DNA of 64,000 bases from Nitrosopumilus sp. Its GTDB lineage: Archaea > Thermoproteota > Nitrososphaeria > Nitrososphaerales > Nitrosopumilaceae. Shown here piece after piece: positions 36,829 to 41,636 of the stretch. The position numbers were made by a program, and so were the translations under genes. Each line of letters begins with the position of its first letter. Position 1 is the stretch's first letter. The notes under the pieces are model-generated. The model was given only the letters and a program-made list of their open reading frames with translations. It ran no database searches and was not told where the DNA came from. The stretch is from NCBI GenBank assembly GCA_965197525.1, contig OZ240211.1, positions 1,024,001-1,088,000 on the forward strand, read 5' to 3'.

Positions 36829-37629
36829 AGACAAAGTTAACAGATAATAGAATAATGAATAGTGAATGATAGTGATTATAGTGAATCATGATAGTGATCA
36901 ATCGTCATCATCGTAAAAGGGAGCATCTTAACCATCATCATCATCATCTAGATTGTCATCAAAGTCATCTTCAAAATCATTATCCAGATAGTCAGGTAGC
37001 GACATATTATGTCAATAGCTGCGATACTGTAAAAACTTTGTTAAACAAAAATAAGGCATAGAGATAAAAATTTCAAATAAATGTATGGGTGGTGATATTA
37101 CTCAGTCAAAATTGTGTAGGTGTTTTATACAAAAAGCAGTTAGAAGATTGACGCCAAAGATATGTAACAGCAATAGTGACATGATCAGCAAAATATAATG
37201 TAATGTAAGCGAATGCAAAATCATAAAGGCAGTGCTGCATGATTTTGTACGTGTTGTATGACTAATACGCATTGCACATATTACTAAACTAATTTGCAGT
37301 GTGCGTTCATAGAAAAAATCCATATGCATCAAAGAACTTTCCTATCAAAAGACACAGCTGTGGTTTAAGAGAACCTTCATGTTTGAGAAAACATGCGATT
37401 ATCAAAACTTGTCAGGGTATAATTTAACAAAGAAAGCACATCTGAGTTGAATCTCATAACTGATTTTGATTAGAGAAAGAGGAAGAGAGATGATGGTGCC
37501 ATTTACAGCACAAAAGACACCCTTGTTTTCAGCATTGTTTTTTGAACAAACCAGCACATCTACGATTTGCACTACATTTTAAAGACTAGCCTCAAAAAAG
37601 CAATAAATTACTATGAAAACGATGTAAAC

Positions 37630-39001
37630 TAGTTTGTTTCATAACATGCCACAGTTCTGACCCGATTGTATAGCATCTAGCCCATACTTTCATCATACCA
37701 TTGAGATCACCCTCTGAGTTATGTCTACGAACTGGTTGTAGCGCTGGATCTTTAACGCTATCTCTTGAATAATGTTATCCATTGTTTTTGCCCTTACCGA
37801 ACTTCCAAATATTCTCTTGAACGCAGAGAAGAATATCTCCACCTGCCATCGGGAACCGTATTCCGCACGTTTTTTCCACTCGTTTTGGTTTTCCGCACGT
37901 TCCTTGATATCCATCTCATGGAATTTGGCAAGGCTTGTAGTGCCGCCACCCAGCTGGTCAAGCGCTGCAATACCGCGTTCCCTGCTTATCCCCATTGCCT
38001 TGTATTCTGCATTGCGTCTTATCCTGATGATAGGTGTAATGCCGTACTCTTTGCATATCTGAAAATTCTCCCTGCTGTCATATCCTGCATCTGCCTTGAT
38101 CTTAATTTTAACATGATCTGGCGGTGGCCCAGTACCTGCAGCCATTACTGTTGCGCGTCGTACATCTGGATCTATTCCCTTGTTCCTCAGTGCCTGTCTT
38201 ATCAGGGGCTCGAACTGTGGGGAATCACCAATCTTTTCGTCAGTTACCGTGAATCCAAGCACCCGCATGGTGTCCTGCTGTATCATGACACTGAGTCTTA
38301 TGAAACCTGACTTGGTCTTTATCTTGTATTTGTATCGTATGTAGTCGCCTTTGGCAGACGGGGACATGCCTGTTCCATCTATGATGATCTGCAACACACT
38401 GTCTTTGCTCCTGACGGTTATGGTTCTGTCTGTAATGGATGTATCAAGACTCTTCGTTCTTCTCCACAGGGTAACGTGATCAGGTGCGTTTTCCTCACCC
38501 AGTGCAGCTATTGCCATTCCTTCCACACATCTGAATGCAATGCCCAGCTGTAGACGTATTCCGATTATGGCCATTATCAGGCACTCTGGATAGATGAACG
38601 GATGACCGTTTTTGCCTGCATTCATCCGTTTAAGTTCATCTACCATGTTGTCAGGAAGAACCAAATGTATCATCTTTCCTCGTTCCACATATCTTGCATC
38701 ATTTTGCGCATGGCTCATGTGTAGCCGCGATTTTTGTTTGGTTCTGGTACCATCATGCGTCATACCCGTCTACCTCCAGAACGCAGCACATAACTAATTT
38801 CGATTAACTTGCTGGAGAAAAGAAACTCACACGTAACATTAAATTGTCTTCCTGTGAAATATGGTTGGTGCGGATATCCTTTCACGCTTGTCGTTGTAGA
38901 TGCTGAAAGGACCATTAGCTCCAGATCTTTAAATGCAGTGGCAGTTAATCTGCAACTTGAATATCTATGACACTGTTTGTGGCAGGTTATGAAACAAACT
39001 A
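37630..39001 (-). mobile_element. IS5-family insertion sequence, intact
   Basis: 24-bp TIRs 37630-37653 and 38978-39001 (1 mismatch); TSD ATGTAAAC at 37622-37629 and 39002-39009. Confidence 0.92.
37693..38763 (-). CDS. IS5-family DDE transposase
   Basis: IDGTG, ADAGYDS, RWQVEIFFSAFKR triad. Confidence 0.9.
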   Translation of the reverse strand: MTHDGTRTKQKSRLHMSHAQNDARYVERGKMIHLVLPDNMVDELKRMNAGKNGHPFIYPECLIMAIIGIRLQLGIAFRCVEGMAIAALGEENAPDHVTLWRRTKSLDTSITDRTITVRSKDSVLQIIIDGTGMSPSAKGDYIRYKYKIKTKSGFIRLSVMIQQDTMRVLGFTVTDEKIGDSPQFEPLIRQALRNKGIDPDVRRATVMAAGTGPPPDHVKIKIKADAGYDSRENFQICKEYGITPIIRIRRNAEYKAMGISRERGIAALDQLGGGTTSLAKFHEMDIKERAENQNEWKKRAEYGSRWQVEIFFSAFKRIFGSSVRAKTMDNIIQEIALKIQRYNQFVDITQRVISMV

Positions 39002-39121
39002 ATGTAAACAACTCTGTTTCCTAAGTTACATGCAACACAGGCCACCATCCGAGTGATTTTGCTTATGTCATTGCCTTTCCTCCTACACTGCGGTCTTTGT
39101 GGCGGGTTTTAGACTGATACA

Positions 39122-40281
39122 CTATCTTTGGTGTGCCGTTCCGTTCTCAATTGCCGTATCGATCATCTGATTGTACAAACACACCTTTCCGTATATCTCC
39201 GTCTTGACGTTTTCCCACTTTCGTGCCATTATAGACTCCCCTAATACCCGCTTGAACGTAGAGAACGCAGTCTCTACTGTCCACCTGTCGTTGTATCCTG
39301 ATTCCCTGCGCCACATATTCTGCCGTTCCTTCTTTTCCTTGCGCGTAAGATCTGCAAACTTGTGTTCTGACTTTTTATCTATACCACTGATTCCGGTTCG
39401 CATTAATTTTGCTGGAAACGCAAACGGATGCATGTCTCTTTTTATCTATATGCTCAAAACTGCCAAGCTGCTCGAACCCAGCCTTTTTGCGGGACATGCA
39501 TCCGTTTGCGTTTCCAGCAAAATTAATGCGAACCGGAATCAGTGGTTTAATCTCGTTTTTGTTGCAGTAGTTGTAAATATCTCGTGTATCATACGCACCA
39601 TCGGCACCTTGGTATCAGTAGATGTCTCCACGTTTGATGATTTTTCTGCGTTTGCAAAAGCTTGTTCCACTAGTTCTTCAAACTGTGGGGAATCTCCACA
39701 CTTGTCGTCAGTTATGACCACTGCATAGATCTTCTTGGTTTTAGCATCTACACCGACATGCAGTTTTATGAATCCGCGCCTCACTCCCCACTTTTCTGCC
39801 ATCCAGTCGCCGCGGTTTGTAGGCTTGAGCCCGGTTGAATCAAACGCAAACAAGCTTATCTCGGTTCTCGTTTTGCCGTCTGTAAACCATGCAGCAGTAG
39901 TGTTACCGCTACCGTTGTCATCTATTGTACAGTTGAGTTTTGTCATCTTTTCTGAAATGCCGAGTATGTAGGCGCATTTTCCTTGCCGACGATTGCCTCT
40001 GCCACACCCTCCAACTGTCTGTACGGGATACCTGTGGCGTTTCGGAACAGAACAGCTGCTGCAACGCATGCGTCTGAGAATGTAAACGGGTGGCCTACCT
40101 TTCCACAGTTCATCTTATCAAGCCCCTGCACCATGAGCTCCTCGTTTATCTGAAGCATAAACAACTTGCCGCGATCTATGTATTTGCGGTTATCATACTG
40201 GAGTCTGCATTCGTTTGAACTGTAAGATTTTTTAGTACCATGCTTGCCTAGTTTGTCTGGAGAGGATGTGTTTTTGGTCAT
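39122..40281 (-). pseudogene. IS5-family transposase pseudogene
   Basis: FDSTGLK..KLHVGVD, ADGAYD and RWTVETAFS are split across frames; 1-bp frameshifts near 39947 and 39607 plus a 67-bp insertion at 39371-39437. Confidence 0.88.
39383..39546. repeat. Perfect 54-bp inverted repeat with 56-bp loop
   Basis: 39383-39436 is the exact reverse complement of 39493-39546; 13-bp direct repeat CTTTTTATCTATA at 39371-39383 and 39438-39450. Confidence 0.93.
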
Positions 40282-40449
40282 GATTGATAGTCTGATTGAC
40301 AACGCACCTCTCTGTTCAATACAGTTTTCTATTGAAAGTGTTTGATACAACGTTCAAATTCAGTTGTTCTATGCCTAATCTGATCTGATTTTGGATTAGT
40401 TAGGCGTGGTTGATGATAATTAGGAAACAGAGTTATGTAAACAGCACAC

Positions 40450-40479
40450 TTATAAAGTAAAGTACCGTACTATACGGTA
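40450..40479 (+). promoter_or_regulatory. radA promoter: TATA box and palindromic operator-like site
   Basis: TTATAAA 40450-40456; TACCGTA-N3-TACGGTA 40463-40479 ending on the A of the ATG. Confidence 0.6.
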
Positions 40480-41636
40480 TGGTAGAAGATTTAAGGCTTG
40501 ATAGTTTGGAGGGCGTAGGTCCTGTAACTACAAGAAAACTATCTGATGCAGGCATCCATAACGTAATGGATCTCATCGTAAGAGGTCCTGTTGAAATTTC
40601 AGAGATAACTGGAATGGAAAAGGACACAGCTGAGAAAATTGTCAATAAAGCTCGTCAACACCTAGTTGAAGGAGGATTGATTGGCAAAGATTTTGTCAGT
40701 GCAAGTGAGATCTACAAACAGCGACAAAATATCGGTAAAATTACAACCGGTACAAACTGTCTGGATACGTTATTTGATGGCGGCATAGAGACCCAAGCAT
40801 TAACAGAAGTTTATGGAGAGTTTGGTTGTGGTAAAACTCAATTTGCTCATACATTATCTGTAATGGTTCAAAAAAGCAAAGAAGAAGGAGGTCTTGATGG
40901 TGGCGTGTTATACATTGACACTGAGAATACTTTCAGACCTGAAAGAATCGTATCCATTGCCCAAGCACACGAGATGGAACCAGAAAAGGTTTTAGATAGA
41001 ATCATAGTTGCTCGTGCATATAACAGTGCACATCAGACATTGATTTTAGAAGAAGCGGGATCAATAATTGAGGAGAACAATGTAAAACTAATTGTAGCCG
41101 ATTCTGCAGTTGGTTTATTCCGTTCTGAATATCTTGGAAGAGGTACGTTGTCAGTTAGACAACAAAAGTTAAACCACTTTGTTCATCTGCTGTCAAGAAT
41201 TGCAGAGACATACAACTGTGCTGCAGTTGCAACAAACCAAGTTATGGCATCACCTGATGTGTTTTTTGGAGACCCAACAAGACCTATCGGTGGAAATGTA
41301 GTTGCGCATACTAGCACCTATAGAATCTACTTTAAGAAATCAGGTAAGAAGAGAATCGCCAGAATGGTTGACAGTCCTCATCATCCCGAAGAAGAAGTAA
41401 TCTTTGCACTAGGTGAAGCAGGTGTTATTGATCCTGAAGACGCAGATAAGAAACCAAAAAAGAGCGCAGCAGTTAAGAAAACAGCTGCTAAAAAGACAAA
41501 GACATCAAAAGAAGAGAAAGAAGTAACAGCAGAGACACCAGAAGTTGAGGTTACGCCAGAGACACCAGAAGTTGAGGTTACGCCAGATAGCAGCAGCGAT
41601 GCTGAATCTGACGATTTAGAACCAGTAAAAGAATAA
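40479..41636 (+). CDS. radA: DNA repair and recombination protein RadA with charged C-terminal tail
   Basis: GEFGCGKTQ, YIDTENTFRPER, RSEYLGRG, GGNVVAH; 27-bp tandem duplication at 41530-41587. Confidence 0.96.
   Translation: MVEDLRLDSLEGVGPVTTRKLSDAGIHNVMDLIVRGPVEISEITGMEKDTAEKIVNKARQHLVEGGLIGKDFVSASEIYKQRQNIGKITTGTNCLDTLFDGGIETQALTEVYGEFGCGKTQFAHTLSVMVQKSKEEGGLDGGVLYIDTENTFRPERIVSIAQAHEMEPEKVLDRIIVARAYNSAHQTLILEEAGSIIEENNVKLIVADSAVGLFRSEYLGRGTLSVRQQKLNHFVHLLSRIAETYNCAAVATNQVMASPDVFFGDPTRPIGGNVVAHTSTYRIYFKKSGKKRIARMVDSPHHPEEEVIFALGEAGVIDPEDADKKPKKSAAVKKTAAKKTKTSKEEKEVTAETPEVEVTPETPEVEVTPDSSSDAESDDLEPVKE

Follow-up and report, generated by a model that had tools for sequence, protein, structure and literature searches.

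The stacked locus upstream of radA

Upstream of the DNA-repair gene radA of this Nitrosopumilus genome, which consists of a single contig of 2.21 Mb with 39.6% G+C, two different insertion sequences, here named IS1 and IS2, are stacked on each other. The features of the locus are listed below. All coordinates refer to the window, i.e. the whole stretch of 64,000 nucleotides that was analysed, unless genome positions are indicated.

37622-37629: first copy of the target-site duplication, ATGTAAAC, promoter-distal
37630-39001, minus strand: IS1, IS5-family element of 1372 bp
39002-39009: second copy of the target-site duplication, ATGTAAAC, between IS1 and IS2
39010-40434, minus strand: IS2, IS5-family element of 1425 bp
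39380-39549: 57-nt inverted duplication inside IS2, 98% complementary, with a 56-nt loop
40435-40442: third copy of the target-site duplication, ATGTAAAC, promoter-adjacent, -44 to -37 from the radA ATG
40443-40448, plus strand: 6-nt spacer agcaca at the BRE position, -36 to -31
40449-40456, plus strand: radA TATA box, CTTATAAA, -30 to -23
40463-40479, plus strand: palindrome TACCGTACTATACGGTA, a candidate operator, between TATA box and ATG
40479-41636, plus strand: radA, 385 aa, with the Rad51/RadA Pfam domain (E 4e-87)

The order at the locus is ATGTAAAC - IS1 - ATGTAAAC - IS2 - ATGTAAAC, followed by the radA promoter, and the ATG of radA at 40479 is found 36 nt past the third ATGTAAAC. Direct reading of the sequence confirmed the claim of an earlier note on this DNA that two different IS5 elements occupy an identical 8-bp target before radA; they also share one orientation, as had been stated there, both transposase genes being located on the minus strand. 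The distance of 7 bp between the target and the TATA box given in the same note becomes 6 nt here, and the sole difference is the assumed start of the TATA box. As such the 8-mer is not rare, with five copies in the window where 3.6 are expected. However, the odds of every additional match of ATGTAAAC at an IS boundary are about 1 in 65,000, and therefore the presence of three copies at exactly the four IS boundaries is not a matter of chance.

Two lineages of the IS5 family

Both elements possess perfect terminal inverted repeats, of 16 nt in IS1 (ends TAGTTTGTTTCATAAC / GTTATGAAACAAACTA) and of 15 nt in IS2 (ends AACTCTGTTTCCTAA / TTAGGAAACAGAGTT), and a TGTTTCnTAA core is common to the ends of the two. 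IS1 encodes an intact DDE transposase of 356 aa (37693-38763, minus strand). The transposase gene of the stacked IS2 is split into three ORF pieces (39122-39433, 39539-40069 and 39943-40350), being disrupted by the 57-nt inverted duplication, which is absent from other IS2 copies. Searched with the NCBIfam IS5 model NF033579, for which the cutoff is 140 bits, the IS1 transposase scores 155.2 bits and that of an intact IS2 copy 200.6 bits; the Pfam profiles DDE_Tnp_1 and DDE_Tnp_1_5 match the transposases as well. Because both pass NF033579 and share only 34% identity, we regard IS1 and IS2 as two lineages of one family. This agrees with the divergent transposases and terminal repeats around a common core described in the earlier note. 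The assignment to the IS5 family is based on a DDE transposase above the cutoff together with terminal inverted repeats and flanking duplications of mostly 8 bp. Among archaeal members of this family the ISH1-type elements with 8-bp duplications (ISfinder groupings) may be comparable, the points of agreement being the 8-bp duplication and the archaeal host.

A second full copy of IS1 is found at genome position 1422683-1424054. It shows 98.5% DNA identity and encodes an identical protein, and having an altered left tip and no duplication it is uninformative on targeting. Intact copies of IS2 (1363 bp with a 408-aa transposase) are present at genome positions 77289-78651, with the transposase at 77344-78567, and 935705-937067. 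The stacked IS2 is 97% identical to these siblings and 100% identical to a 358-bp fragment elsewhere, so that the divergence among copies of IS1 or IS2 does not date the insertions. The other IS2 copies in the same genome are flanked by the duplications TCGTGTTA and TAACAGTT.

Target sites are defined by position and not by sequence

Relatives of IS2 with 70-75% amino acid identity are found in the genomes G018, G002, G160 and G185, the last of which belongs to a different genus. Their duplications, of 8 bp and sometimes 7 or 9, are unrelated in sequence. For a census of target sites we used 41 distinct full copies from seven genomes, 30 of the IS2 clade (from these four genomes and the genome studied here, G000) and 11 of IS1 and its relatives. 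No consensus could be found in the duplicated 8 bp across the 41 copies, and because duplications elsewhere have none, the sequence of ATGTAAAC is not the recognition signal, which is where we depart from the idea of an 8-bp target recognised by its sequence.

A different picture is obtained when the surroundings of the duplications are considered. Empty sites were reconstructed and compared with the TATA motif YTTAWAWA ([C/T]TTA[A/T]A[A/T]A), a match being defined as 7/8 or better. At 20 of the 41 sites one side of the duplication is followed, after exactly 6 nt, by the start of such a motif, while each of the remaining offsets within 0-39 is represented by two sites at most. At random intergenic positions of this genome a match at offset 6 occurs in 1.6% (binomial P ~3e-25), a comparison in which some of the scored data had also served to define the motif; among the sites looked at after the motif had been fixed, four out of 13 match. 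The earlier note had proposed strong directed targeting common to both IS lineages, and had suggested a genome-wide census of duplications to look for a consensus and for promoter bias. The directed targeting stands and is tied to promoters, and from the census comes a clear promoter bias at offset 6 and no sequence consensus.

Next to duplications of 7 or 9 bp the distance of 6 nt is kept on the side of the promoter, and therefore the promoter-side cut is the anchored one. The elements are found in either orientation relative to the promoter. Because about half of the copies have no TATA motif at 6 nt, the offset rule is a strong preference and not an absolute one.

Which lineages keep the offset

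The offset-6 rule is followed by the IS2 clade and by a 1470-bp family in G145. The same offset, on thinner data, is seen for IS1, for two partial IS1 copies (c and e) and for a 51%-related family in G018. In the IS1 lineage proper three out of eight flanks match, including the copy at radA, most of these flanks being one-sided. Three related IS5 families of the same genus served as negative controls, namely those in G167 (1141 bp), G149 (1461 bp) and G152 (1012 bp), and in all three the offset of 6 is absent. The G167 elements have similar ends, and the duplications in G152 are 7 bp long. In the transposase tree (midpoint root, basal support weak) the G167 family is nested as the sister of the IS2 clade, and this nested position suggests a loss of the targeting habit.

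An 18-nt pattern of the IS2 end found 59 loci in metagenomes, 57 of them chance matches, and the two real ones were excluded as IS2-clade copies since they are too distant (~50% identity to the IS2 transposase). For a G002 copy without duplication, the reading of its flank as the ortholog of a wHTH regulator was dropped, as the ORF is TnpB-like.

Are the targeted boxes promoters?

The 6-nt spacers between duplication and TATA box were compared with the generally known BRE consensus. In 26 oriented sites the first spacer position is a purine in 22 and the fourth is A or T in all 26, and spacer positions played no part in the selection of the sites. Judged by its sequence the spacer looks like a BRE.

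Further evidence comes from the genes downstream. The ATG codons of ORFs of at least 60 aa peak at 36 nt from the duplication (eight sites, the radA site being counted twice, for IS1 and for IS2). Across the genome, and independent of the insertion sites, TATA motifs are most frequent at -30/-29 relative to the ATG. Such a geometry of leaderless promoters has been reported for Thaumarchaeota (PMC6028130). An ORF start 22-37 nt downstream is present for 14 of the 20 targeted boxes, compared with 11% of intergenic TATA-like 8-mers (P ~1e-9); in other words, of the ~9300 intergenic TATA-like 8-mers in G000 only 11% are promoter-like, versus 70% of the targeted boxes. Target choice in these elements is therefore fixed and promoter-anchored.

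How the promoter is recognised is a separate question. The transposase could read BRE/TATA-like DNA or its bendability directly and cut at a fixed distance without any host protein, which would explain the stacking likewise. There is indeed a clear sequence pattern around the target. C is enriched at a distance of 2 nt outside the duplication on its distal side (17 out of 26 sites), which speaks against guidance by a host factor alone, and it is over-represented at the first TATA position relative to the promoters of the genome; both suggest some direct contact with the DNA. However, a direct readout does not easily account for the preference of promoters over the many other TATA-like 8-mers, nor for the same offset in lineages with unlike terminal repeats and transposases only 34% identical, nor for two sites which have a poor TATA match and still an ATG at 36 nt. 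We consider it possible, but rather doubtful, that the DNA is read in this way. For the same three reasons, the preference for promoters, the offset shared by transposases with unlike ends and the ATG kept at 36 nt where the TATA box is weak, we infer that the guide is most likely the bent complex of TBP and TFB with the promoter, or a contact with it, comparable to the role of TFIIIB for Ty3.

The radA promoter as a repeated target

All 74 other Nitrosopumilaceae radA loci with 75 nt upstream have a conserved TATA box, and their promoter regions are highly conserved and carry no insertion. Therefore the empty radA site is the norm, and the empty alleles which the earlier note had suggested looking for in relatives are found in every one of these loci. 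For this species itself, neither an empty allele nor one with a single IS was found in a metagenome scan with a 28-mer made of duplication plus promoter.

The radA ortholog of G018 (88% amino acid identity) is preceded by an IS2-like copy with the same offset. Because the duplication of this copy (TGCGGTCA) differs and its orientation is opposite, the insertion is an independent event. The radA promoter has thus been hit three independent times in two species, by IS1 and IS2 in G000 and by the IS2-like element in G018. When scored with a weight matrix that was derived from the sites other than radA, the radA site ranks only ~2959th of 4.4 million positions. The three hits are therefore not explained by a match of the DNA alone, and the idea that radA is simply the best DNA match was ruled out.

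Since the radA site is an ordinary match at the level of DNA, one could assume that radA or its regulon is targeted specifically, in the sense that promoters with a TACCGTA operator are preferred, for example through TBP/TFB held in place by a repressor or through an induction of transposition along with the regulon. Besides the three hits at radA, the second G018 copy also adjoins a promoter with TACCGTA repeats, and only about four promoters of the TACCGTA type exist in G000. However, the operator is found at none of the 25 sites of G002, G160 and G185, the numbers are small and the role of the operator is putative, so that we regard such specific targeting as unlikely. The hits at radA would be compatible with TBP/TFB complexes that persist for long at promoters under operator control, or with transposition induced by damage, although both ideas are speculation. 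As a tentative proposal, the clade might recognise the TBP/TFB-promoter complex, integrate at its upstream edge and favour long-lived complexes such as those of the radA regulon.

A model for target choice and stacking

In the explanation that we favour, this IS5 clade probably selects its targets by their position relative to the archaeal core promoter and not by the sequence that is duplicated. The promoter-side cut would be made 6 bp upstream of the TATA box, which for a leaderless gene corresponds to the border of the BRE on its upstream side, at -37/-36, and the second cut would follow at a distance of 8 bp, in some cases 7 or 9, in the upstream direction. Such an insertion spares BRE, TATA box and gene and regenerates the arrangement of duplication, BRE and TATA box beside the promoter. 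The site thus remains a valid target, and when another element inserts by this rule the 8 bp are duplicated once more, so that three copies of ATGTAAAC result. The safe harbour assumed in the earlier note fits here, as BRE, TATA box and operator are left intact.

Under this rule the promoter-proximal IS2 would have been the second to arrive. The state of the elements speaks against this order, IS2 being a decayed copy and IS1 intact. A composite of IS1 and IS2 that moved as one unit was rejected, since in that case the 8 bp between the elements would differ from those at the outer ends.

The earlier note had also considered that the end of the first element guided the second. In this case the transposase of the second would dock at the resident terminal repeat via TGTTTCnTAA and cut at the junction of IS and flank. 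The core is indeed present in the repeats of both elements, and one IS2-like copy in G018 lies 1 nt from a 130-bp MITE-like element with a related end. However, among more than 40 insertions only one or two are found next to another element, the left end of IS2 matches only 4/8 as a surrogate of the TATA box, the radA site fits the TATA rule unaided, and the radA promoter of G018 was hit with no resident IS. Guidance by an IS end is thus not needed, finds little support and appears improbable to us. That the stack is a one-off of random insertion, of which only harmless intergenic copies survived, can practically be dismissed: surviving IS copies are generally enriched between genes, but selection can produce neither a peak at a single nucleotide (20 sites against two at most, P ~3e-25) nor three identical duplications, and the frequency of ORF starts behind the targeted boxes (14 of 20 versus 11%) contradicts it too.

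Comparison with known targeting systems

The yeast element Ty3 integrates at the start sites of Pol III by means of TFIIIB, a factor that includes TBP as well as Brf1, the homologue of TFB. Like Ty3 and TRE5-A from Dictyostelium, the elements described here would insert position-specifically at an initiation complex that contains TBP, and thereby find a safe harbour by genes. Ty3 differs in being a eukaryotic LTR retroelement with an integrase, and the dependence on a factor is experimental there, whereas here it is inferred.

Among bacterial elements TnGBS, ISLre2 and ISKra4 are known to target sigma-A promoters, where they insert upstream of the -35 box at a distance of 15-17 bp, and it has been proposed that they contact the initiation complex in a way similar to Ty3 (PMC3942029). 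These are also DDE transposons; their insertions keep a constant distance to the core promoter on its upstream side, spare the promoter and produce a duplication without consensus, and their members with symmetric ends insert both ways. Differences concern the distance and the type of promoter (here 6 bp before an archaeal TATA box), as well as the orientation, since most TnGBS and ISLre2 members insert one way and the elements studied here either way. Moreover, their transposases are Mutator-like (p-MULT 3/4), in contrast to the IS5/DDE_Tnp_1 transposases found here, which have no Mutator-like match. Because of these Mutator-like transposases the TnGBS group represents the same strategy and not the same family. 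For IS5 of E. coli, hot spots before glpFK, flhDC and fucAO have been described as single sites that depend on DNA structure and selection (PMC5493358, PMC11894529). In the literature on archaeal and thaumarchaeal IS elements we found no promoter-anchored insertion for archaea or for the IS5 family.

Significance

Published cases of promoter-anchored transposition concern a small number of Mutator-like elements in bacteria as well as retroelements in eukaryotes; here it is statistically clear in ammonia-oxidising archaea, with a precision of a single nucleotide at the edge of the BRE. The accumulation of different transposons before one gene, all with the same duplication, is easily understood on this basis. 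The finding suggests that the eukaryote-like TBP/TFB platform can guide the landing of archaeal transposases. In addition, it offers a way of mapping promoters in uncultured archaea from sequence only, and it bears on how the IS-rich genomes of Nitrosopumilus tolerate their load of IS elements. The repeated hits at radA, beside the conserved palindromic candidate operator, may indicate that Thaumarchaeota have a DNA-damage regulon. If recognition of the TBP/TFB complex proves true, it would represent a prokaryotic counterpart of the targeting of Ty3 by TFIIIB, transposition would be linked to the response to DNA damage, and promoters would act as reusable pads on which stacks of IS elements are built.

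Target sites of the IS1- and IS2-related elements

Base preferences were counted in 26 oriented target sites. In 17 of these sites a cytosine stands 2 nt past the duplication on its distal side, and C as the first base of the TATA box is commoner in the targets (13/26) than in the promoters of the genome (38/197). Both preferences may be the trace of direct contacts by the transposase.

Genome G151 harbours two copies of an IS1-related element, L168 (C1:680904) and L169 (C1:686661), separated by 5.7 kb. They share an identical 8-bp duplication, their flanks are mutually reverse-complementary, and the target carries TATAAACC at offset 6, i.e. behind a 6-nt spacer. The element has apparently inserted twice into one target that lies within an inverted repeat.

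Structure of individual copies

The second full IS1 copy of this Nitrosopumilus genome (L006, genome C1:1422683-1424054) has no target duplication and its left tip is changed (TAGGTG in place of TAGTTTG); it may be the product of recombination between copies. The flank of IS1 fragment e (L015, genome about 1892733-1892790) is a tandem array with at least three copies of the 16-bp unit GTTATATAACACAAAT.

The transposase gene of IS2 in the window contains a duplication which is absent from both intact IS2 copies (n=2):

Window 39380-39549: 57-nt inverted duplication, arms 98% complementary, 56-nt loop

In genome G018 the duplication of an IS2-like copy is followed, after 1 nt, by a MITE-like element (L027:2490-2630, about 130 bp) whose ends GACTTTGTTTCTTAA / TTGGGAAACAACGTT are related to those of IS2. 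This may be a second stack, and an older one, at the promoter concerned. An IS2-like copy in genome G185 is split (L178:1335-1455) by another MITE, about 130 bp long, whose ends are AACTTTGTTTCCCAA.

The radA promoter

The palindrome TACCGTACTATACGGTA occupies the interval between TATA box and ATG at radA as well as at two further promoters of the genome, and a fourth promoter carries a copy with one mismatch:

Window 40463-40479: TACCGTACTATACGGTA, radA promoter
Genome C1:569187-569203, minus strand: TACCGTACTATACGGTA, other promoter
Genome C1:1773949-1773965, minus strand: TACCGTACTATACGGTA, other promoter
Genome C1 about 405273, plus strand: copy with one mismatch to TACCGTACTATACGGTA, fourth promoter
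Genome C1:568837-569187, minus strand: 116-aa winged-helix gene, belongs to one of the two other promoters with TACCGTACTATACGGTA

The motif is kept in about 80 radA promoters of Nitrosopumilaceae. The winged-helix protein could be the repressor, regulating its own gene.

In relatives (radA loci L082-L160) a conserved block, about TTTACGATCA, is located some 50 nt 5′ of the radA ATG. Its counterpart here, at about 37575-37621 of the window, now lies 2.8 kb off, beyond both IS elements. The displacement of this TTTACGATCA-like region by IS1 and IS2 could have altered the regulation of radA.
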